Assembly (NCBI GenBank): GCA_010093745.1 | Contig: MU005959.1 | Span: 114,270 to 178,269, forward strand | Length of the DNA: 64,000 bases | From: Piedraia hortae CBS 480.64 | Lineage: Eukaryota | Reading direction: 5' to 3' | Shown here: positions 27,297 to 63,240 of the stretch, piece after piece | Position numbering within the stretch: the stretch's first letter is position 1 | Layout: each line of letters starts with the position of its first letter | Made by a program: the position numbers and the translations under genes | The notes under the pieces: model-generated | Database searches by the model: none | Told to the model about the DNA's origin: nothing | What the model saw: only the letters and a program-made list of their open reading frames with translations

Positions 27297-27947
27297 TTAC
27301 CGAGAAACATTCGTATAGCTTGCTCTGCCAGATCCTTGCTCAATGGTTACTCTGGCGGCTTCTTGCTCGAAATCATACGCGCTCGAGGCATTGCGCCGTC
27401 TTCTCAGAGCCGTAATCGCCCCCTCAGGAATACCGGAGGTGGGCTGGGAATTTAATTGAGTCAAACCGGTCTGTTGTGCACCTTCCACAGTCGAGCCATT
27501 CTGTTGTGCGCCTTCTGTATTGACCTCATTCTGTTCTTCCTGAACCGGATCGCGAGTGATACCATATCTTCTCAAGAAAGGCAGGATCGTCCGGAGCCTA
27601 CGCCCTGCCTCCTCATCAATATCGCCGGAATTCTCTGCGTCGAAATCGGCGCTATGAAGCCCGTGGTGGCAGTATTCTTTGAGAATGGCTTCAATGGCTG
27701 CTTCGGAAACTTCTTTATCGGGGTTGAGCGCCAATACCACAAGAGCGGAGAAGTAAGTATCACTACCATCACCCTTGAGGACGTTAGAGCCTTCCTCCGA
27801 GGATTTCTTATCGTCTCTTTTTCGGTTTCCCCAAAACGTTACAGTTGTGCTTGCAAGGCTACGTGCTGCAACAGAAACCAAGAGCCCAAGCCCAAGTCCA
27901 GCGTAAAGAACTCTGTGGTGCTGCATATGCGTTTTGAAAACGGACAT
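27297..27947 (-). CDS. hypothetical protein with N-terminal hydrophobic/TM segment
   Basis: Open frame of ~216 aa from ATG 27947 (YAGLGLGLLVSVAA; LVVLALNPDKEVSEAAIEAIL); internal TxEGAQQ repeat. Confidence 0.6.
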   Translation of the reverse strand: MSVFKTHMQHHRVLYAGLGLGLLVSVAARSLASTTVTFWGNRKRDDKKSSEEGSNVLKGDGSDTYFSALVVLALNPDKEVSEAAIEAILKEYCHHGLHSADFDAENSGDIDEEAGRRLRTILPFLRRYGITRDPVQEEQNEVNTEGAQQNGSTVEGAQQTGLTQLNSQPTSGIPEGAITALRRRRNASSAYDFEQEAARVTIEQGSGRASYTNVSR

Positions 27948-28367
27948 CTTCTCAACTGATTGATGCTGGTTCCCGCTGGGGTGTGGAAGTTGCGTGAGTT
28001 GTGTCATAAGCCAAGTGCAGTGGTTTAACATAAGCATAGGCTTAAAATGGAAGGTCAGGCTCTCAGGTGAGTTGTAAGCGATGAGTCATGTTATGTGCTC
28101 CGAGAGCTGGACTACACTCCCATTGGTGCGTTTTCCAATGGGAAACACAACGAGTAAGTCGTTTGATAAAGAGAGCCTTATTTCCCAATAGCGCAAGTTC
28201 TTGCGCTTAATCTGACCGATGAGACTTCAAACTTGAAGTCTCCAGTACATGGCTTTGAAAACCCCAACTGGCGAAGGTGATCATCATACAATGCTCTCAG
28301 CCGCTGATATACTGCCTACCTCCACTTTAAGGCTAACAGCGACTCAATAAAAAGGCAAAAAATTGCA

Positions 28368-28811
28368 TTAATGCTCAACCATGCAGTGCAATTCCTTCGG
28401 CAAAACCATCTTTCTCTCCATCAACTCAGCCAAGTTCACTGCCGCCTGCTCATTTCTAGTCCGCGATGTCCAAAACGCTTCATATTCCGCCACGGCGGGT
28501 CCCCAGTCGACCAGTACCTTCTCCAGCCCAGCTATGTTCCGTTCTAAGTCGTTCAAGAGCTTCCTCTCTTCCAGAGCATTATGTTCCACTATTACTTCCA
28601 ACTTATCCAGAATCAGTCCAGCCAACGCAAAGCCAACACTCTCGGTGTTCCAATGTAATTTGAAGAGCTCGCGTGCCTCGTTGGTTATGGTTGTGTCAGA
28701 TATGACGGTGGTGGAGGTGGCGGTAAAGCGCTTTTTTAAGGTGGATGCGTTCGTCCGGAGAGCCGCTAGGCGGACTCGAAGGCTAGCCACGTTGGTGTTG
28801 AGCTCAGACAT
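28368..28811 (-). CDS. orphan small helical protein family, copy 1 (type A)
   Basis: 147 aa; aligns by eye with five neighbours (STLKKRF...EARELFKLHW...GF...AEYE...NLAELME). Confidence 0.75.
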   Translation of the reverse strand: MSELNTNVASLRVRLAALRTNASTLKKRFTATSTTVISDTTITNEARELFKLHWNTESVGFALAGLILDKLEVIVEHNALEERKLLNDLERNIAGLEKVLVDWGPAVAEYEAFWTSRTRNEQAAVNLAELMERKMVLPKELHCMVEH

Positions 28812-29177
28812 TGTGTAAGCTTTGGGTAGGGTGGAGGGTCAGTAATATGTATGCGTGCAGTCTGAATGCAGCGTTGTCGGGGCAGTGAGGGAAAACCGCA
28901 CTGCAAGCTAGTATGAATGCAAGGATAATACTGACTCATCGCCAGCGTGAGTCGTAGCTGGAATGTTCCAGATGGCCTTTACACGTGATCACATAATTTT
29001 GTCTTATGCGGATTGGGAGAAGCCTGATAACCTGGTAGTCTATTCGTCGGAATGCTGGAGACTCCGTAGGACTAAGGAAGGCTACTTATTGTGCGCGCAA
29101 CCTATGAGTTTGCGACGTATACGTCAATTAGTCCCCATTAAGAATAGCATAATTCTGAGCAGCTTTTTCAATGGTCG

Positions 29178-29265
29178 TCCTCATTGGTCTAGTGGTCATG
29201 ATTTCCGCTTGTCACTTCTTGGGTTACGAGCGCGGGAGACCAGGGTTCGATTCCCTGATGGGGAG
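29178..29265 (+). tRNA. tRNA-Asp(GTC), intron 29215-29230
   Basis: TCCTCAT/ATGGGGA acceptor stem, A-box TGGTCTAGTGG, anticodon GTC 29211-29213, B-box GGTTCGATTCC, T6 terminator. Confidence 0.93.
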
Positions 29266-29567
29266 CTTTTTTAAACTCTTGATGTGAATTCCTTGGTACG
29301 AATGCATCCGTGACATTCTCACTCTTTTAACTGAACATTCTACTCTACCAAAACCCTCAAACTACCTCTCAACACGATGCCTAAGGGGTCTCCAATTGAA
29401 GACGTAAAAAGCGTCGATCGGAGAGGGCAATCGGCGATACGAAATATGACAATGCCACATACCTATGTGGCGCTGTTGTATTTCGTACCCTTACCTTAAA
29501 GTTCAACAGCGGCCAAAAACAGAGATAAGAAAGATGTACATCAACCCTTGGGGTTACAAACCATCCC

Positions 29568-30020
29568 TTATGAAAAATCAATCACGCTCTCCATGAGATC
29601 AGCCAAGTTCTAACCCTGCGTAGCATTCTCATATTCAGCCGCAGCGCATGCCAAATAAGTCAGCAACCCTTCCAGAAAGGTCATCAATTCTTCCATGTTG
29701 ACCAAGTGTTCCGCTATGCGCCATTCTTGCAAGTCGAGCCAGGAGGCCGGGAAGCCATCGCCACGGTTGACCGACCTCACTGTGTTACAAACTTCCAATA
29801 ACAACCCCACAACATGCAAATGCCGATCAAAAATCTTAAAAGCTTGGCTCTCATGGCCTCAGTACCTCTCGTGTACCAGGCATGCTCCAGGAGTAACGGT
29901 TGCGTTTAACAAAATGGTGGTGGTAATAGCCGCGAAACGCTATTTCAAGGTGGATAAGGTCGCGTGGATAGCGGTGAGGCGGGTAGAAAGCCCAGCCAAC
30001 CTCGTGTCGATAAAGGACAT
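29568..30020 (-). pseudogene. orphan family copy 2 (type A) with three in-frame stops
   Basis: 151-codon frame MSFIDTRL...STLK*RF...ERY*GHE...ATQG*NLADLMES; TAG 29940-29942, TGA 29859-29861, TAG 29610-29612; no frameshift. Confidence 0.8.
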
Positions 30021-30338
30021 CTTGAGAAAGACACCGTTTGGGAGAGTAAGTAATGTGTGTGTGTGTGTACTCTCGATGCAATGTTGTTGGGACAGTGGTT
30101 GAAAAAAATGCAGAGAAGGCACTTAGTCATTGCGCGAGCTGTAGCTTCCCACACAGAGAGGCCGGCTGAACGATACTCGGAGCATTAAACTCTCAGTAGA
30201 TAATTGTTCCAAGACGTGATCACGCAAATTGTTTCTGACAAATGGGAGGAAGCCTGCTATCGGTTCATGATCACGTGGACGACAAAACCAAAGTAAATCA
30301 TTTGCTCAACGCTTAGCCTTACGATCTACCCCATACGG

Positions 30339-30770
30339 TTAATTCATTTCGCTTTCCATGAGATCAGCCAGGTCCTCCACCGTTTGTTCGATCCGATCCT
30401 GCATGACATCCTCGTATTCAGCCACTATGGCTTCCACGATACCTAGCAGTTCTTCCATCATGTTCTTCCCAAGCTCAACGAGGGTTAAGAAATGCGAAAA
30501 GCGCTCATCTGGCTCGGTCATCGTCCTCTTCGCGCTATAGATACGCAACATTTCTTCCAGCGTAGCTAAAAGGTTACTAATATCCGTAAAGCCCTCCTGC
30601 TCCCCGTCCCATAACATCTCGCGCATCTCTCTTGCTTCGGGAGTTGTCAAATCGACAGCGGGGATGGCGGCGTAGCGCTGCTCCAAGGCGGATATGGTCG
30701 TGTGAATAGCGGCAAAGCGGGCAAAAAGGGTAGCTACCCTGGTGTTAGAATCAGACATCCTATAAGACAT
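30339..30770 (-). CDS. orphan family copy 3 (type B)
   Basis: 143 aa (second ATG at 30758); SALEQRYAAIP...EAREMREMLW...GF...AEYE...DLADLMES. Confidence 0.8.
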   Translation of the reverse strand: MSYRMSDSNTRVATLFARFAAIHTTISALEQRYAAIPAVDLTTPEAREMREMLWDGEQEGFTDISNLLATLEEMLRIYSAKRTMTEPDERFSHFLTLVELGKNMMEELLGIVEAIVAEYEDVMQDRIEQTVEDLADLMESEMN

Positions 30771-30795
30771 CGGGTTGGTGGAGAAGGGTAAGGTA

Positions 30796-30826
30796 TGTGT
30801 GTGTGTGTGTGTATGTGTATATGTGT
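30796..30826. repeat. (TG/CA)n microsatellite upstream of copy 3; related tracts upstream of copies 2 and 5
   Basis: tgtgtgtgtgtgtgtgtatgtgtatatgtgt; similar tracts at ~30054-30068 and ~33604-33629. Confidence 0.85.
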
Positions 30827-31462
30827 ATTCTTTGAAAACAATAATGCTACCCGGCTCGTAATTGCAACTCGCGTTGTGAGCTAGTAGAAATGCAGGGATA
30901 TTACTGGCTTATCGATTGCTTGAGTTGTAGCGCCCGGTACTGAGTATTGACTGCTTTGGTTGACTGTCCCAAATAATCTCCACGCATGGCCATGCAGATC
31001 TTTGGGCGGATGGTAAGAAACCCGTGATCGGCCCGTGATTGTGTTGTCTGTACATCACAATACTGGTAGGCATTTACATCGTGATACTGTGCTAGAAGTT
31101 GATGAGGGCTCATCACAGTATTCCACCCATCCTTCCTGTCAATGTACAGTAGCAGTTTAGCAGGATGAATATGCATAAGATTTTATACAATGGTTCTAGG
31201 AGGACTCTCCAGCTTGACAGGCTGACTTTGTGTTCTTCAGCTAGGCTCAAATTGGCAACGGTCGTGCGCCTTCCGGCAACACGCAATGCAAAACCAACAA
31301 CATGATACATATGTGGATGTTTTCAACTGAAAAGAACTAAATAAATTTTCTTTTGCATTTCAAACATGACTGGCAAGAGCCGGCGACTGTTAATATGGTT
31401 GTAAACACATCGCACCATGCCCGAAGATATAAATATCACTTAAAGCATCTCATTTAATGCAG

Positions 31463-31549
31463 TCCGCATTGGTATAGTGGTCATGGTTTCAGCTTGTAAC
31501 TTGTTGGGTTATAAGTCGGGACACCAGGGTTCGATTTCCCGATCGAGAG
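31463..31549 (+). pseudogene. degenerate tRNA-Asp copy (anticodon position reads GTA)
   Basis: Colinear with the two intact copies including the intron, but acceptor (TCCGCAT/ATCGAGA) and anticodon stems are mispaired. Confidence 0.85.
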
Positions 31550-31667
31550 TTTAATTTTTTAAACGCGTGACGTGAAATTTTAGAAGCCGTAGTGCCCGAG
31601 ACGATCTCACTCTTTGAACGAGACATTCGACTTTACCAAAACTCTCTAGTTACGCCTTAACGCAATG

Positions 31668-32210
31668 TGTCGGAGGGGTGAACCTTCGAGGACTCAAACA
31701 GAACGTAGATCATAGACAAATGTGTGCACTCAACTCTGACCAAAAGTTGGATGTAGATGTCTATCTCTATTTGAGGTAAGGTTCAAAACCCTCTCCACAC
31801 TACCTTAATCCAACCGCATTCGCCAGGACAATATCAGCTAAGACGTGATGTCTGGGTCAAAAGGTGTGTATAACTGTGTACGTATCTACGTGCTGAGAGC
31901 TAATGCAGCGTCCTCCACAGACCCACGGTTGGCCAGACCCTATTTGCCGAGACCACACGATGAAGTGACCTCATCACAGGCGAAAACTCCTCTATGAGGC
32001 AGAAAACCCTGCGAAGCCTCGGGCGTTCTAACTATCACCGATCTACCTCATATGACACAGGGTTCACCGTGCTATCAGCGAACCATCCCTTAAGCATGAA
32101 CGAGACAATGACCCGTCTCAGGGAAAGCTTCCTCTATAGAGGTAAAATCCTGAGAAGTTTCGACTTCTATCTAGGGTTCTGGTCATGGTGAGTGCCACAT
32201 CCTTCTGACA
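31668..32210. mobile_element. solo LTR (543 bp) with 5-bp target-site duplication CAATG
   Basis: TG...CA ends; imperfect terminal inverted repeat TGTCGGAGGGGTG / CATCCTTCTGACA; CAATG at 31663-31667 and 32211-32215; absent from the homologous site of the sister unit (~29375). Confidence 0.85.
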
Positions 32211-32358
32211 CAATGCCTGACGGAGTCTCCAATGTGAGATGTGAAAAAGGGCTGATTGCCTGTCGGTACAGAGTTACATATCCCCTCATCCTAGGGCTCA
32301 ACAGAAGCCCAAAACAGAGACAAGAAAGACGTGCATCAGCTATCAGCGGTACAAATCA

Positions 32359-32850
32359 CTACTTGCGACAAATGAAACAAGTTCTCCATGAGACCAACCA
32401 GGTTCTAAACCTGCATAGCAGGCCATGTTCATCCACGGCGCTTCTCACATCATCCAGTACCTCTTCCAGCAAGGCCATCCAATCTTCCATGTCGATCACG
32501 AGATCCGCCAAGGCCCGTTCTCCTATGTTGAATTTGGGGTTTGGCAAGCTCTCGAAACACGCGAGATTCCTCGCTTTCTCGCTACATAAAGGCAATGACA
32601 ATTCCACGCGGCGCCAATACCGATTAACGCTCTTAAAACCTTGCCTCTCGTAGTCCCAGTATATTTCGCGCATCTCGTGTGCTACCCGTGTGACTGTTGC
32701 GTTAGACAGAAAGGTGGCGGAAATAGCGGTGAAACGCTTTTCCAAGCTGGGTATGATCCAGAGGATATTAAAGAGGCGGGTAGAAAGCTTATCTACACTG
32801 GTGATGATAGCGGCCAATACGAAGAAATGTAGGTCGGGAAAATAATCCAT
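32359..32850 (-). CDS. orphan family copy 4 (type A), altered N-terminus and frameshifted C-terminus
   Basis: 163 aa; LSTRL...SLEKRFTAI...NATVT...EMREIYW...GF; the NLxxLME motif lies in another frame near 32400. Confidence 0.65.
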   Translation of the reverse strand: MDYFPDLHFFVLAAIITSVDKLSTRLFNILWIIPSLEKRFTAISATFLSNATVTRVAHEMREIYWDYERQGFKSVNRYWRRVELSLPLCSEKARNLACFESLPNPKFNIGERALADLVIDMEDWMALLEEVLDDVRSAVDEHGLLCRFRTWLVSWRTCFICRK

Positions 32851-33152
32851 TTTATGTGTGTACTCTCGATGCGGTGTTGTTGGGGCAGTGCTTGATGACG
32901 CCTGGTAAATTGATAAAAATGCAAGGAGATCACTTACTCATCGCTGGCATGAGTTGTAGCTTCCTGCGCGGGACGGTCGAATTAAAGATACGCGGGGCAT
33001 TAAAACTCTCCGCAGAAGACAGTCTTGATACATGATTACGTAGATGGTGTTTGACAAATGAGAAGAAGTTCGCGACCGGCACATAACCGCGTGCGTGGAA
33101 CCCGAAACGGAAAGAAAGTATTTACATCAACGCTTAGGTTACGATCCACTCC

Positions 33153-33569
33153 TTACGACTCATCCATCACGCTCTCAAAGAAATTAACCAGGTCCCTCAC
33201 CGTCTGTTCAATGCGATTCTGCGTAACACCCTCGTATCCAGCCACGATGATTTCCAAGGCATCTAGCAACTCTTTCAAATTGTTCGTCCCAAGCTCAGCC
33301 TCGTCTAAGAAATCCGAACAGTCTTCATCGGGCTCGATCATCGCGTTGTAGATACGCACAATCTGTTCCAAATAGCCCAAAAGGTTATTAATCCCAGTAA
33401 AGCCAGCCTGATCCTCGTCCCAGAGTATCTTGCGCATTTCGCGTGCTCCGCTGGTGGCCAAATCGATGGCGGGGATGGCGAGGTAGCGCTGCTCCAAGGC
33501 AGATCTGGTCGTGCGGAGGGCGGCGAGGTGGGCAAGAACCCTAGCCATCCTGATATTACAATCTGACAT
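33153..33569 (-). CDS. orphan family copy 5 (type B)
   Basis: 138 aa from MSDCNIRM; closest to copy 3 (SALEQRY.AIPA.DL.T..AREMR..LWD..Q.GFT.I.NLL, RIEQTV.DL). Confidence 0.8.
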   Translation of the reverse strand: MSDCNIRMARVLAHLAALRTTRSALEQRYLAIPAIDLATSGAREMRKILWDEDQAGFTGINNLLGYLEQIVRIYNAMIEPDEDCSDFLDEAELGTNNLKELLDALEIIVAGYEGVTQNRIEQTVRDLVNFFESVMDES

Positions 33570-34269
33570 TCTATAAGAATTCGGGTTGGTGGAGAAGGGT
33601 GTTTGTGTGCGTGCGTTCGTGTGTGTGTGCTCTCTGAAAAAATAATACGATGTAACCGGGCCCGTGATTAAGAACCGCCTTGCGATCCAATATAAATCCA
33701 AGCATATCACTGGCTTATCGCTGGAATGGGTGGTAACGCCCTCTTCGGAGCCTTGCAACATTTGGGAGAATATTTAATCCTATATATGGCACGCAGAGCT
33801 CTTCAGCGGATGGTAAGCTGATCAAAGTGCAAGGAGATCACTGACCTATCGCTGGACGAAGTATTGGGTCTCTTCACAGACCTTCGAACATAGTTTCCAC
33901 GCACTATTATGCAGATATTCAAACTGGTGGCAAGGAGCCCGCAATCGGCTCGTAATGTGTGACATATACATCAAAGATCGATGCAGGCTCAACACCGTCG
34001 ACATTATTCATCACCCAATATTTTTTTCTTGCAAACCACAGTAGCAGTTCAGCACAATATATGCAAGGGTGTTCACAATGCGCTCGATACGCCGCACTCC
34101 ACAGTACTATGTTCCCAACTGGTCGAGCTTTATTTCACCCTCAACTGTCCGTCTAAGGGAACATCCCACTTTGCTGACCACTTCTGGCCTCCCAAACTCT
34201 ATTGCAAACACCCATTCAACCATATACCCGAGGATATAAACAAAACTTTAGACATCTACTCTAACGAAG

Positions 34270-34354
34270 TCCTCATTGGTCTAGTGGTCATGATTTCCGC
34301 TTGTCACTTGGGTTATAAGCGCGGGAGACCAGGGTTCGATTCCCTGATGGGGAG
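34270..34354 (+). tRNA. tRNA-Asp(GTC), intron 34307-34319
   Basis: Mature sequence identical to the 29178 copy; anticodon 34303-34305; long T-run terminator. Confidence 0.94.
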
Positions 34355-34622
34355 TTTTTTTTTTTGCCTGTCATATACCCGCTGGGCATGATTGCGCCTG
34401 GACGATTCCACTTTCACAACTGAACATCCTTACCAGATGAATTACCCATCAACGCACCACCTGATGGAGCCTCCACCATAAAACACAAAAATGACCAACC
34501 AACGAGCATGATTGCTTGGCAGCGCACAAACTTCCTCGTCCCAAACTTCCTCACCCAAAAACGAAAACAAAAGAAAAATCAATCATCTCTCAACGGTACA
34601 ATTCATACCCTACGAAAAGTCA

Positions 34623-35009
34623 TCATGTACCTCCATCCATTCCCTCAGTCAGCCCATCCTCCGTAGTCTGATACGCCTCGTACTCCTCCAAAGCATTACC
34701 CACCACGCCTAGAAAGCCCTCCACAATATTCAAGTGCTCTATCGCGATGAGACGAGGGAGGTCCGCACATTCCATACCAACAGAGCGTTCCAACAGAATT
34801 TCCAGCCAGTTGAGGACGAATTCGATGTTCGTGAATTTTTTGAGCTCATCGTCCCAGTACGTGCCCAGAATTTCGCGTGCTTCGGGAGTAACGGTCGCGC
34901 TGAATAGGCCAGCGGCGGGGATGGTGGTGTAGCGATTCTCCAGACGGGATTTGGTCATGTGGAGAGTGGAGAGGCGGGTTGTAAGTGTTTCCATCGTGGG
35001 CTCGGACAT
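34623..35009 (-). CDS. orphan family copy 6 (divergent)
   Basis: 128 aa; LTTRLSTL...SRLENRYTTIP...ATVTPEAREIL..YWD.E...F...EEYE. Confidence 0.75.
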   Translation of the reverse strand: MSEPTMETLTTRLSTLHMTKSRLENRYTTIPAAGLFSATVTPEAREILGTYWDDELKKFTNIEFVLNWLEILLERSVGMECADLPRLIAIEHLNIVEGFLGVVGNALEEYEAYQTTEDGLTEGMDGGT

Positions 35010-35955
35010 TTTGGGAGAGGTTGGGTTTGGGGGGGATTGGAGAAGGGGAATGTTGTTAGGTGAGTGGGCAAACAGTCACGTCACGAGCTAAAGCCTAGGG
35101 TTGGTAATGTGGAACAGAGGCTCGGCGGTGGGGTGGGTGTGGTTTTCTGTTTTGGGATACGAGGGAATGTTCTAGGTATGTAGTTGTAAAGACGCAGGGT
35201 TTTGGGCGGGTGGGAGGAAGCTTGTGAGCTGGTTGCAGATTGATGGGCTAGACGTTGAAAGAATGGAAGGTTTTGGTGCTTATGATTGACGAGGGATACT
35301 CATTGTAAGGTATAGATTCGTGCGGTGGATGGTGATGGCAACACCATAGGCAATAATATATCAGACTCTGTCCCCACAGAATGGACGGAGGATCATAATG
35401 TAAAAAGGTCCGCACAGATATCAATAAGTAATGAGGGCTGCCCTGATAGTCAAACCACATCTCTATTCTCATCACCAGACCTTGTGGTCATTTGCTGCTC
35501 TTGGCATCAGGTTTGTTAGGTGCTAGTTGGGAAGATAAGCGGCGGGAAGATGTCGAAATATTCCTGCACAAAGCAGTTGATCAGAGTTTGGATGAAAACC
35601 TCACCAAACTCTATCTACGATTTGCCAAAAGGATGCTAGAGCCGCGGCACCGTCCAAGCCAGAGCATTACGAAGGTGCACGGAGAGTCTACAAGCCAAGT
35701 GTGCACTGCTAAATGATGGGCCAAAGGCAGGACGAGGAGTAGTCAACGTCGATATTTTGATAGCCAATCATCAGTGAGGGAAAACGGGAGGGCAAATCCT
35801 CACTAAGCCTACAGCTAGACAAGATTTGGATGATGCAATTCTCTTTTCCGACATACTGAAGCCAGGCAACTGTCGTAATTCAGTCATGTTACTATAAAAA
35901 ACCCAGGTATTCGCGATGCCCAATCGTAGCCAAGACCATCGGCATGTCTGTGCAA

Positions 35956-38900
35956 TTACATGTACAAAGAAGCCGTGGCACAGATATCGCGCTTGATGAG
36001 CTCGTGGCATTTCTGCATCTTTGCAAAGAGGCTGGGATCACCGATGATGCGGGCGGCATTGCGGACCTCGCGACAAGTTTCTTCCAGTCGACTCATAACC
36101 CGCACAATGCTACCCTCAGGCACATCGGTCAATTCCGCTATGCGACTAAAAGGCATACCACGCGCCCACTCATAGACTACTTCGACCAGGCCAAAGCGCG
36201 GCTTGCTTGCAAAGTCGTTGCTGTCATCTGCTGACAAGATGACCTGGTGGTAGATTTGCCGCTCATTAACCCTCTCTGACAGGGCTATGATGGTGTCTCG
36301 ACCCTTCTTCAATGCTGGCGTGAGCTGCGGAGTTGAATCCGTTCGCTCCTGGAAGACAAACGCCGACAACAGGGCCACAATTTCTTCGGGCTCATACTCT
36401 GCCAACACGTTCTCCAGTACAAGCTCCGTCAGCACCAGCTCGTCCGCCGAATGAATCTCACAGGCTACTTTGCCCTTTAGCTCAACGCGGGATTGTGCGT
36501 CCACAAATCCAAGCTCTTGCAGAACTCGCACGCGTTGTTCGTAGTCGGGCAGGAGCTGCAAATTTTCGTCTGACATGAGCTGGCGAATGGATTCTATGTG
36601 CTCACGAATCAGCCACACATCATGCTCCATGGCGTAGTGCTTGACGAATCTGGGACAATTGATGCATCTTCTTTCCCCAATGGTCTCTGCGGCTTGCGCT
36701 TGCTCATCCAGCATTTGTCTGATGGACAGGTTCTTCAGGTACCGTCGGTAATCTAGTCCGTCCCACCCAGACCACACCCAGCTGCTTGCACCGCATGCGA
36801 GCCACTTGGACACGGCTTCCGTACGCGCATCGCTGTTAGTCAGGTGCACACCTTGCACGTCAATGGGAATTGAGGTGCACGTCAGTACTTCAATCTCGCT
36901 GACGCGGACACTTGACAATTTGAATTTTACTTCCTCCATGCTCTGTGGCAATGGTTGGAAGTGATGGCGGAGGAAGGGAATGTATGGCAGGGTGTCCGTG
37001 TCGTCTCGCCGAGATTCCTTGTGGCGGATTTCCAAAATCTGCACACTTGCATTCTCGGGACTACCTCTTGTGGCGCCTTCGCGGAGCAATATACCAGCCG
37101 CACGGGCTTGGCCTTCACGCTTGATAACAACCAGTCGTTTTGGCTGGAAAAGACGCCGTCCAACCGGTGTTTTCAGCATGGCCTGGTGAACTTGCTGCAT
37201 ATACGCACTGTAATGTATGCCAGCACGGTGCACTTTCTCAATGTCTGGATCGCATATCCCACATTCCTCACGCTGTACTTTCGCCAAGTCAGCTTCGGAT
37301 AGTTTAATCTGTTGCTCATGTTCTGGGCGCAGAGCCTGCGTAGCATGTTCGGAGAAAGAATGCTTGATCATCTCCTCAATCTTGAGAGCCTCGACGCGCA
37401 GCAAATTCAAAATCATGTTGTATGTCAATCGGAATTGCGAGCGTAGCTTGGTCGGCGTTCCCAGCATCATTTGTCTTAGTCGAGCAACTGGCGGCGCCGC
37501 ATCTGCGCCGGGAGCGACGATGATGACATGACCAACCTTGTCCAAGCCGCGTCTGCCAGCCCGACCTGCCATCTGAGTGTACTCACCGGGCGTCAGATCA
37601 CGAAACTGCTTGGTGTCATATTTGCGGAACCCGGAGAACACAACAGTACGAGTCGGTAGATTCAAGCCCATCGCAAAAGTCTCAGTTGCGAAAAGTACTT
37701 TGACAAGAGTCTTGGCGAAGAGAATTTCCACGCACTCTTTTACAATGGGCAGCAGGCCGCCATGATGCACTGCAATGCCCCTGCTGAGCAACTCACGTAC
37801 ACGACGAATCTGTGGCAATTCGCGGTCATCTTCTTTCAGCCGTGCTAGAGACTTCTCTAGGATCATGTGTATAGCACTTTTCTCAGTTGCGGTGCAAAAG
37901 TCGAGGTTAGAAAGTGCGTTTGCATTTTCTTCCGTCCGCTTTTTCGAGAAAACGAAGATACAGCACGGAAGCAGGTCCTCTTTGCGGAGATGCTGGACCA
38001 AATGGACCCAGATGTTACGATCCTGGGCAGCCGTTGTTCTCCCTCCACCACGCCCGGTGCGTGCAATGTTGCCATGCCCTCGTCCGACTTGAATAGTACC
38101 CCCTCGTTGAGGACCACCTCGTGCTGGCCCTCCGCCTCGAGCCTGGCCACCCCTATTCTGACCACCTCGTGCTCGACCACCACGATTACCACGCCCTGCG
38201 GCCACCGCTCCCTCCTCCTTTTCTTTCGCTTTCTTCTCCGCCTCTATCTGCTTGTCACGGCCGGTGAAGGCTTCGTTGGCCAGCTTCCAACCATTTTCCA
38301 GGAAAGACTTGCTGGCATCAACAATCTTGAACATCTTTTTGCCGGCCCACAGGTAATGCTCCAGCGGGACAGGTCGTTTGGGGGTCGAGATCACGTAAAT
38401 GTCCTTTTTCTTGGTGCGGCCAACCCATGAAGCGAATTCATAGGTGTTTGGCACGGTAGCAGAGAGCAGAATAAGAGTGACGTGCTCAGGCAGCATGATG
38501 ATCACTTCTTCCCACACAACACCTCGCTCAGTGTCATTGACGTAGTGGACTTCATCGAAGATGACAAACTCGACGTCACGGATGAGGTCAGCGCCATGGT
38601 AGAGCATACTTCGCAAGATCTCTGTTGTCATAATGAGGCAGCTAGCTTCTGGCCGGATCTGGACATCGCCTGTCAAGATACCTACATCATCAAACGTGTT
38701 GCGGAAATCTCGAAACTTTTGATTGCTCAGAGCCTTGATGGGAGATGTGTAGATGGCCTTGGTCATGTGTTTTGCTGCCAGGGCGATGGCGTACTCTGCA
38801 ACAACAGTCTTCCCTGCCGATGTATGAGCTGCGACAAAGACTGAATCACCATTCTCTAGGTGATATATGGCTTCCTTTTGGAAGGTATCTGGCTCGAATG

Positions 38901-39792
38901 GCCACTTGCGTGCCATCTCCGGTACAAGTTCGTAGAACTCGTCAAAATTACGATTGACGTCAACCATATGAGCCCATTCACGACCGCCATGCTTGTTCTT
39001 AGCCATCGATAGAGGTGCACGAGGAATCAGTGCGGGAAACTCGATGGGCAGGAGATCATCGATTTCCTCTCCGTCACTCTCTTCCTTTGACTCAGCCGTG
39101 GGCTCAGGCTCTTCTTGTACCAGGTCTGGTACGTCTGATTGCTCCTGAAGCACAGCTTCAACCTCTTTGGCAGACTCATCTTCGGGTTTAGTCCATTGCA
39201 GACCGCGAGAGAACCCTGGTGGGATTTCAAGCAGACCGTCGGGGGCTGCAAAGTCTATGACTCGGTCTAGTTTACTGCCACGAGGGCCGTCTTGACCAGG
39301 TTGAGCAAAAAGCTCTTCCTCGTAAGCCGCTGCTGCCTCAACAGCCTCCAAACCCCCAGGAGCGAATGGGAAAGAGCCAGGTGCACCGCGTACAAAATCA
39401 GCTCGACTGGATGGTTTTCGAAGCAGAGAGGTTGAGTTCTTGGCTGTAGCGCTATTAGCAGGAACGGTGACTTCACGATATCCGATGACACGCCCTTCCA
39501 GACCTTTGCGATTGAAACGTATGATTGTGCGGGACTGAGTGGGAGCCAAAGCGCAAAGTTCGCTATAGTCTGCTAGTAACGGAAATTGCCATCTCTGCTG
39601 CAGTCGATCAAGCCATTCCGGGGAAAAAATTACTGATGGTGTCAGAAAGTCGCTTTCAAGCTTTGCCTTTTTTTCTTGGCGAGATGTTTTGGCACGTTTA
39701 CGCGGGCGTGTTTTATCCAGAAAATCATTGTCATTGTCGAGGTGATTTGACTGTAGCGAGAGTTCTTGCATGCAACTTTCGACTTCCTCCAT
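35956..39792 (-). CDS. SKI2: Ski2 DExH-box RNA helicase (Ski complex)
   Basis: Ski2 N-terminal NSTSLLRKP...FVRG; AHTSAGKT, SPIKALSNQK, DEVH, SAT, QMAGRAGRRG; RG-rich insert; DSHCT ending ASLYM. Confidence 0.96.
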   Translation of the reverse strand: MEEVESCMQELSLQSNHLDNDNDFLDKTRPRKRAKTSRQEKKAKLESDFLTPSVIFSPEWLDRLQQRWQFPLLADYSELCALAPTQSRTIIRFNRKGLEGRVIGYREVTVPANSATAKNSTSLLRKPSSRADFVRGAPGSFPFAPGGLEAVEAAAAYEEELFAQPGQDGPRGSKLDRVIDFAAPDGLLEIPPGFSRGLQWTKPEDESAKEVEAVLQEQSDVPDLVQEEPEPTAESKEESDGEEIDDLLPIEFPALIPRAPLSMAKNKHGGREWAHMVDVNRNFDEFYELVPEMARKWPFEPDTFQKEAIYHLENGDSVFVAAHTSAGKTVVAEYAIALAAKHMTKAIYTSPIKALSNQKFRDFRNTFDDVGILTGDVQIRPEASCLIMTTEILRSMLYHGADLIRDVEFVIFDEVHYVNDTERGVVWEEVIIMLPEHVTLILLSATVPNTYEFASWVGRTKKKDIYVISTPKRPVPLEHYLWAGKKMFKIVDASKSFLENGWKLANEAFTGRDKQIEAEKKAKEKEEGAVAAGRGNRGGRARGGQNRGGQARGGGPARGGPQRGGTIQVGRGHGNIARTGRGGGRTTAAQDRNIWVHLVQHLRKEDLLPCCIFVFSKKRTEENANALSNLDFCTATEKSAIHMILEKSLARLKEDDRELPQIRRVRELLSRGIAVHHGGLLPIVKECVEILFAKTLVKVLFATETFAMGLNLPTRTVVFSGFRKYDTKQFRDLTPGEYTQMAGRAGRRGLDKVGHVIIVAPGADAAPPVARLRQMMLGTPTKLRSQFRLTYNMILNLLRVEALKIEEMIKHSFSEHATQALRPEHEQQIKLSEADLAKVQREECGICDPDIEKVHRAGIHYSAYMQQVHQAMLKTPVGRRLFQPKRLVVIKREGQARAAGILLREGATRGSPENASVQILEIRHKESRRDDTDTLPYIPFLRHHFQPLPQSMEEVKFKLSSVRVSEIEVLTCTSIPIDVQGVHLTNSDARTEAVSKWLACGASSWVWSGWDGLDYRRYLKNLSIRQMLDEQAQAAETIGERRCINCPRFVKHYAMEHDVWLIREHIESIRQLMSDENLQLLPDYEQRVRVLQELGFVDAQSRVELKGKVACEIHSADELVLTELVLENVLAEYEPEEIVALLSAFVFQERTDSTPQLTPALKKGRDTIIALSERVNERQIYHQVILSADDSNDFASKPRFGLVEVVYEWARGMPFSRIAELTDVPEGSIVRVMSRLEETCREVRNAARIIGDPSLFAKMQKCHELIKRDICATASLYM

Positions 39793-63151: not shown

Positions 63152-63240
63152 TGGACACTATGGGAATTGAACCCATGACCTTTCACAGTCACACATTTAA
63201 CAAATGCGAAGCGAAAATCATACCCCTAGACCAAGTGCCC
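63152..63240 (-). tRNA. tRNA-Ala(CGC) with ~17-nt intron
   Basis: GGGCACT/AGTGTCC acceptor with G3:U70, TTCGC-TT-CGC-A anticodon arm, GGTTCAATTCC B-box, long T-run terminator. Confidence 0.92.

Follow-up and report, generated by a model that had tools for sequence, protein, structure and literature searches.

The wtf drivers of fission yeast are a multi-copy, fast-diverging and lineage-specific family that includes pseudogenes and is found next to repeated RNA polymerase III (Pol III) genes or long-terminal-repeat (LTR)-type repeats; their products span the membrane several times and are produced from two different start sites. A second system is the YPR071W/YLR036C family of Saccharomyces cerevisiae, which has been described as a rapidly evolving orphan family of unknown function with five paralogues, no homologues beyond the genus, and all five copies adjoining transfer RNA (tRNA) genes or Ty LTRs (PMC2675101; 10.64898/2026.08.24.746667). 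One of these sources reports that 34% of the yeast gene-gain sites adjoin tRNA genes (Gordon, Byrne and Wolfe 2009, PMC2675101). The locus analyzed here is an array of six paralogous protein-coding copies interleaved with three copies of a tRNA-Asp gene at positions 28368-35009 of a 64,000-nt stretch of DNA of Piedraia hortae CBS 480.64 (MU005959.1), hereafter called the window, to which all coordinates refer. The preferred reading, to which a probability of roughly 0.7 was assigned, is that the array contains a real, taxonomically restricted family of self-associating helical-bundle proteins, which expanded by tandem duplication together with tRNA-Asp and is subject to birth and death.

When the five open copies were compared with the whole window by tblastn, exactly six related stretches were found, every one on the minus strand, with cross-matches at E values of 1e-5 to 1e-49. 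No further copy was detected in the rest of the 64 kb, where no score fell below E 0.06. In order of position, the six copies were A1 (28368..28811; an intact open reading frame (ORF) of 147 aa, annotated as protein P0003), A2 (29568..30020; a pseudogene of 150 codons with 3 in-frame stops), B1 (30339..30770; an intact ORF of 143 aa, annotated as protein P0001), A3 (32359..32850; decayed, with a lost start, a 1-nt deletion near the 3' end and a 163-codon ORF that is open by chance), B2 (33153..33569; intact, 138 aa) and C (34623..35009; intact, 128 aa, without the C-terminal acidic helix motif, annotated as protein P0004). Protein size ranged from 128 to 150 aa across the six copies and from 128 to 147 aa among the intact ones. 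For B2, the ORF from the first ATG comprised 202 aa, the family-homologous part started at 33569, and the database model of 131 aa started at MARVL. A1, B1, B2, and C all exist as annotated proteins of a 497,646-bp contig and A3 does not; A3 was likewise absent among the annotated proteins recovered by profile search.

With the exception of B1 and B2 (60% identity), pairwise identity between the copies was 23-38%. The strong protein divergence noted in an earlier reading of the letters alone (the sequence-only reading) was thus borne out, as was the shared sequence pattern proposed there: nine columns in an alignment of the copies were invariant, among them the W and the R of R[FY]. The order and strands of the proposed map, with all proteins on the minus and all tRNAs on the plus strand, were confirmed by tblastn and by Rfam and sequence comparison. 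Its division of the copies into A, B, and C types stood in part. A maximum-likelihood tree supported only B1+B2 (97/95); grouping of A1, A2, and A3 reached 52/38, and A1 is not clearly A-type. The link between A2 and A3 rests on their homologous flanking DNA and not on the tree. By position in the array, A1 matches the slot of B1 and B2 (next to and before a plus-strand tRNA), and C matches the slot of A2 and A3.

Ratios of non-synonymous to synonymous substitution rates (dN/dS) were calculated for all pairs of copies. Values of 0.49-0.69 were obtained in all six pairs of intact copies (A1, B1, B2, and C; 0.52 for B1-B2), which corresponds to moderate purifying selection and shows no sign of pervasive positive selection. 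Seven of the nine pairs that contained A2 or A3 showed values of 0.74-1.43, with 1.43 for A2-A3; the other two were A2-C (0.46) and A3-C (0.51), for which dS was saturated at approximately 1.5. For A3 against the other copies, the range was 0.51-1.43. Nucleotide distance was 0.31 substitutions per site for B1-B2 versus 0.51 for A2-A3, two pairs of equal age. In a neutral simulation, an ORF stayed open with a probability of 0.25 at 0.13 substitutions per site and of 0.035 at 0.4, so that the four open copies exceeded chance expectation. GC content at third codon positions (GC3) was 0.60-0.65 across the intact copies.

Two sequencing runs cover the locus: X1, which is DNA, and X2, from the same organism in another study, whose label 'RNA?' is a guess. 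Contigs assembled from X2 coincided with A1 (28312-28704), A2 (29518-30252), B1 (30380-30783), and C (34631-35035), each with 0 differences; the contig on B1 contained a 51-nt in-frame skip. They were restricted to these four gene bodies and lay off the spacers; the X1 DNA contigs ran through. No weight was given to gaps in coverage, which affected the spacers, A3, and B2 in X2 and 28000-29236 in X1. The X2 contigs probably reflect transcription, that of the A2 pseudogene included; neither strand nor transcript starts can be read from the contigs of the two runs. The skip in B1 (30539-30589; 51 nt, corresponding to 17 codons of helix 2) had a depth of 47 and 2-nt microhomology at the joint. 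An interpretation as spliceosomal intron was rejected, as shifting the joint within its allowed range gave neither GT..AG nor GC..AG ends, whichever strand was considered; a deletion allele, unusual RNA processing or an artefact could each account for it. Close to the start of B1, X1 reads appeared to be cut at 30784-30833.

Because of their lower dN/dS, ORFs open beyond neutral expectation and, for A1, B1, and C, X2 contigs, the four intact copies A1, B1, B2, and C were read as genes, and their sequences behave as those of real genes. Alternatively, the array might be non-functional DNA, in which six relics of a duplicated segment are decaying and in which frames and structural models reflect chance in a composition favorable to helices. 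Two of the six copies are indeed clearly dead, A3 retains its 163-codon ORF by chance, and no run is recorded as RNA for this stretch. However, the joint neutral probability of the four open frames would be about 0.25 x 0.25 x 0.035 x 0.035, B1-B2 diverged less than the equally old A2-A3, dN/dS was below 1 in six of six intact pairs, GC3 was 0.60-0.65 in the intact copies, and X2 contigs coincided with gene bodies. The chance that all six copies are mere relics was therefore considered very slight. A1, B1, B2, and C would instead be held open by moderate purifying selection, within a family that undergoes birth-and-death turnover.

The two decayed copies provided information on the history of the array. 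A2 carried the three in-frame stops that the sequence-only reading had reported (TAG at codon 27, TGA at codon 54, and TAG at codon 137) and no frameshift. The stops were seen in two runs and were carried without differences by the X2 contig at 29518-30252. A3, for which that reading had noted no defect, proved to be defective: TTG stands in place of the family start codon, and loss of 1 nt within the conserved AEYE motif puts the final ~20 codons out of frame. Read in the family frame, A3 also contained a TAG at the position homologous to the third stop of A2. This shared TAG places the truncation or death of the A gene earlier than the duplication of the A-B unit, which hence did not multiply with both A and B intact. 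Repeat-induced point mutation (RIP) was rejected as source of the stops and the divergence, since TpA/ApT ratios of 0.66-0.82 in the 28-36 kb region did not exceed those found elsewhere in the window and the differences between the two repeat units comprised 379 transitions and 321 transversions without C-to-T excess.

All three tRNA copies are on the plus strand. The first (29178..29265) and third (34270..34354) are intron-bearing tRNA-Asp(GTC) genes that scored 46.2 and 46.5 bits, respectively, with Rfam model RF00005 (gathering score 29). ARAGORN, run in bacterial mode, identified the third as Asp(gtc) and misread the first as Gly, owing to its intron. The two genes differed only in the intron, by 2 substitutions and a 3-nt indel; with identical exons, the mature tRNAs are therefore identical, as the sequence-only reading had stated. 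Its designation of the middle copy (31463..31550) as a pseudogene was also upheld. Relative to the third gene, this copy showed 11 mismatches plus gaps, including changes in the acceptor and T-arm and a change of anticodon from GTC to GTA, and it gave no Rfam match even at E <= 1.

Direct repeats in the array had a period of approximately 2.8 kb (A2 to A3, 2795; B1 to B2, 2811-2820; second to third tRNA, 2807), and DNA identity between the two units was 67-77%, with 67% across 2099 aligned bases. The latest duplication copied a unit of ~2.8 kb consisting of tRNA-Asp, A, and B. Spacing between the first and second tRNA was shorter (2285), because an insertion of ~540 bp (31668..32207) that breaks the homology between the units is present in the second unit only. 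Word depth in this insert reached 1539-2608 versus 12-47 alongside it in both runs (roughly 100x), and it is a high-copy repeat of the host genome, with a short interspersed nuclear element (SINE), a miniature inverted-repeat transposable element (MITE) or a solo LTR as candidate classes. A search for terminal inverted repeats in the insert yielded none that was convincing. The insert lies ~120 bp downstream of the dead tRNA-Asp and has no second copy in the window.

Distances attributed to the last duplication agreed with each other (dS of 0.50 for B1-B2 and 0.38 for A2-A3; ~0.44 for non-coding DNA). Flanks of all three tRNAs were mutually homologous, as were the upstream regions of all six genes, which indicated that older rounds of duplication preceded the last one. 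The dead middle tRNA combined a 5' flank homologous to that of the third tRNA (repeat family D11, 79%) with a 3' flank homologous to that of the first (D14, 75%), a junction of the kind that unequal crossing-over of two repeats carrying tRNA-Asp would be expected to create. The array appears to have grown through two or more rounds of tandem duplication, with the tRNA-Asp gene and its flanks inside the repeat, most likely by unequal crossing-over between two tRNA-Asp-containing repeats. Such an exchange would have left a redundant middle tRNA, which subsequently decayed, and an A copy truncated before the last duplication would have given rise to both present-day pseudogenes, A2 and A3.

Structures were predicted with AlphaFold2 from a five-sequence alignment. 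The model of B1 contained three long antiparallel helices (H3-35, H44-81, and H89-142) at a predicted local distance difference test score (pLDDT) of 81 and a predicted template-modeling score (pTM) of 0.68. For A1, helices H2-38, H44-76, and H83-115 and two short C-terminal helices were predicted (pLDDT 84, pTM 0.77). The helical character suggested by the sequence-only reading was thus reproduced as three-helix bundles in both models. All intact copies are acidic (isoelectric points of 4.3-5.8; grand average of hydropathy from -0.12 to -0.23). No transmembrane segment was found in the four intact copies, in which the highest 19-residue Kyte-Doolittle mean was 0.82-1.43, and none of the proteins had an N-terminus resembling a signal peptide. 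Taken as predicted, the family consists of small, acidic, soluble antiparallel three-helix bundles. In topology and helix lengths, these resembled the designed protein sc-apCC3 (PDB 9rgv/9rgz) and the scaffold-dimerization domain of TBK1 (6nt9), with target-side Foldseek TM scores of 0.76-0.78. In the structural search VIA, generic three-helix coiled-coil bundles aligned at Z 13.6 (root-mean-square deviation (rmsd) 1.6 over 96 residues) and Z 14.0 (rmsd 1.9 over 112). At 8-23% identity, and with VIA Z scores under ~13 being common for helical models, this likeness is one of fold, from which function is not transferable. Foldseek against the PDB returned no match at E <= 0.001 (best E, 0.015).

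A modeled complex of A1 and B1 reached an interface score (ipSAE) of 0.64 versus 0.00 for the best control, with partner pLDDT of at least 78 and contact agreement between runs of at least 84%. In calibration, 51 of 78 solved complexes scored this high, as did 2 of 108 mismatched pairs. The modeled complex supports self-association among family members. The proteins may accordingly be imagined as non-enzymatic binding modules, which would pair through helices 2 and 3 as homo- or heterodimeric helical bundles. That they have a stress-type regulatory role is a tentative suggestion and rather doubtful.

Homologues were sought by several routes. Pfam-A hmmscan of the five open copies gave nothing above threshold, in line with the absence of a recognizable domain reported earlier, and at E <= 1 returned at most 4 sub-threshold, unrelated models per protein of domains of unknown function (DUF) or phage type. 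A word-based protein search with B1 retrieved only B1 itself. A hidden Markov model (HMM) profile built from the five copies was run against 1,835,955,588 representatives and gave six matches at E <= 0.001, of which three were the window's own A1, B2, and C and three were low-complexity repeats; none was a homologue from outside, nor was there a match to a conserved family. Scans of metagenome contigs with B1 and C singly gave 128 and 121 pattern matches, respectively, of which 0 were confirmed. Against PDB sequences, the profile matched designed coiled coils at E 0.004-0.007, followed by noise (PDCD10 and Atg17, E 0.3-0.4). The ESM Atlas offered no feature neighbor for A1 or B1, and its structure rows were unrelated bacterial helical proteins. 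Copies elsewhere in the host genome were sought among annotated proteins, where the profile retrieved none beyond those of the window. In the literature, supplements lying outside the scope of the search, no such Dothideomycete family was described and only the yeast parallel surfaced. The family is therefore regarded as taxonomically restricted and without known homologue; it is itself undescribed, having neither a homologue, a Pfam model nor a specific structural neighbor.

SKI2, a 1278-aa ORF at 35956-39792 that flanks the array, was used for placement: its N-terminal 300 residues had best non-self matches of 62-64% identity, in Elasticomyces, Zasmidium, Teratosphaeriaceae, Hortaea, Dothistroma, and similar genera. 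The host is therefore a Dothideomycete of Mycosphaerellales/Capnodiales type without a close relative in the protein collection. The orphan status might then be a mere failure of detection, brought about by rapid evolution and the scarcity of closely related sequenced species; the proteins would be a far-diverged, locally amplified branch of some ordinary conserved family of small coiled-coil subunits. Similarity between short helical proteins fades rapidly, paralogues within this one genome are already at 23-38% identity, and even the closest relatives represented in the database are remote. Against this stand the empty result of the five-copy profile in 1.84 billion representatives, the best profile match to PDB sequences being to designed coiled coils at E 0.004, and the lack of a specific structural neighbor, including blank Atlas feature searches for A1 and B1. 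Detection failure was on balance judged improbable, and a restricted family remained the preferred reading.

Several observations weigh against that reading. Best non-self matches of only 62-64% for the SKI2 N-terminus, and hence the lack of close relatives, weaken the orphan status, and the searches for homologues covered protein collections and metagenome contigs rather than fungal genome DNA. Fold searches with Foldseek and VIA yielded generic or designed helical bundles alone, the top VIA Z of 14 being within the range common for helical models. The complex of A1 and B1 was modeled without alignments, its pass does not distinguish a heterodimer from an ancestral homodimer, and invariant residues were not enriched at the modeled interface (4 of 9 invariant A1 columns fell among ~44 interface residues out of 147). 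Except for B1-B2 and A2-A3, dS was near saturation, which makes the other dN/dS values rough. Finally, the status of X2 as RNA is a guess, and the similar ratio of repeat to gene depth in X1 and X2 fits DNA equally well.

The sequence-only reading had regarded the pattern of the array as typical of genetic conflict systems. According to such an explanation, the locus would be a poison-antidote meiotic driver (spore killer), an allorecognition locus or a defence locus, in which toxin and antidote paralogues interact and turn over in an arms race. Its description as a tandem, diverged birth-and-death family with pseudogenes held, and a fast-diverging tandem family of orphans with pseudogenes does fit a conflict locus. 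So does the predicted contact between A1 and B1 (0.64 vs 0.00), which plain dimerization of paralogues would explain equally well, and an intact B beside a dead A could be a relic that retained only the antidote. Some fungal drivers are, moreover, small orphan proteins. However, the conflict interpretation itself gained no positive evidence. dN/dS values of 0.49-0.69 among the intact copies gave no hint of pervasive positive selection, transmembrane segments and signal peptide-like N-termini were both absent from the proteins, and hmmscan of Pfam-A at E <= 1 listed no WTF, HET, HeLo, HeLo-like or NACHT model for the five open copies. Among the structural matches listed, no chain with a HeLo or four-helix executioner fold appeared; a plant resistosome chain (Z 9.2, rmsd 8.8) represented generic helical background. 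In addition, the A copy was truncated before duplication of the A-B unit. A genetic-conflict locus was therefore considered very unlikely.

A more radical variant takes the array as a new type of locus, either selfish or of self/non-self character. Soluble three-helix-bundle paralogues would form a cognate heterodimer, as toxin and antidote or as killer and protector, and the locus would turn over by unequal crossing-over at the tRNA-Asp repeats. If true, antidote-only and dead copies would have been left behind, and the array would represent a spore-killer or incompatibility system unrelated to wtf, Spok, and HET. This proposal was regarded as a long shot. In terms of the preferred reading, a restricted family of helical-bundle proteins, pairing between paralogues would, if real, provide a small model for the divergence of duplicated self-associating proteins. 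Its importance would become far greater only if drive or toxicity were demonstrated by a cross or by expression.

Upstream of each start codon, at a distance of 86-165 nt, a 62-nt element (repeat family D3) was found. With the copy upstream of B1 (30870..30931, minus strand) as reference, minus-strand copies were located upstream of A1 (28897..28958, 76% identical), A3 (32899..32960, 73%), and B2 (33676..33737, 73%, with a second, weaker copy of 61% at 33807-33868). The A1 and B1 elements were 76% identical versus 54% nucleotide identity of their coding sequences. The core of the element was TGAGTCA in A1, TGAGTAA in A3, and TGACTAA in A2, and was degenerate in B1 and B2. These cores resemble binding sites of the Gcn4/AP-1 type for basic leucine zipper (bZIP) proteins, and the conserved element with its bZIP-type (AP-1/Gcn4-like) core is a putative driver of transcription. 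Further upstream of A1 and A2, a near-perfect palindrome ACGTGATCACGT was observed, with CACGTG inside that of A1, and degenerate versions occurred upstream of A3 and B1 (palindrome positions 28990-29010, 30215-30235, and 30262-30275); this palindrome is a candidate for another cis-element common to the copies. Short (CA)n/(TG)n microsatellites lay 20-60 nt upstream of the starts of B1, B2, and A2 (30790-30815, 33600-33640, and 30050-30068, respectively).

Apart from SKI2, large ORFs of the window encode further housekeeping proteins, namely DNA polymerase alpha, a sterol methyltransferase, TIMELESS, 3-hydroxyacyl-CoA dehydrogenase, and a flavin adenine dinucleotide (FAD) oxidoreductase. The first four of these, together with SKI2, bear out the housekeeping neighborhood proposed earlier. 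The array is situated in the interval between TIMELESS and SKI2. An ORF on the minus strand next to it (27297-28037; 246 aa, 216 aa in the database model) had no Pfam match, and its sole database match was itself. As this neighbor is also an orphan, the whole TIMELESS-SKI2 interval from 27.3 to 35 kb holds lineage-specific genes and tRNA-Asp. A further tRNA gene on the minus strand at 63152-63240, identified by ARAGORN as Ser with anticodon gct and scoring 47 bits with Rfam, is unrelated to the array.

The array offers a compact and datable case of gene birth and death, with intact genes beside a pseudogene pair that was truncated and then duplicated. Also present are a redundant tRNA, whose decay proceeded at roughly the neutral rate, and a cis-element that is better kept than the coding sequence. 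Like wtf, the array is multi-copy, lineage-specific, fast-diverging, and pseudogene-bearing and lies near repeated Pol III genes or LTR-type repeats. In contrast to the multi-pass membrane proteins of wtf, the array proteins are soluble and acidic, without a hydrophobic segment or a Pfam match; on the features compared, the parallel with wtf drawn in the sequence-only reading thus failed, with neither membrane segments nor a match to the WTF family. As a kind of locus, the array is familiar, since lineage-restricted, fast-evolving families beside tRNA genes are already known in yeast. As regards homology with the YPR071W/YLR036C family, the profile search returned no yeast protein, a direct profile-profile comparison being outside its scope. 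That family is the closest printed parallel found: both it and the array consist of strongly diverged orphan paralogues that adjoin tRNA genes or, in yeast, LTRs, but its copies are scattered across four yeast chromosomes, whereas those of Piedraia form one tandem array with the tRNA inside the repeat.

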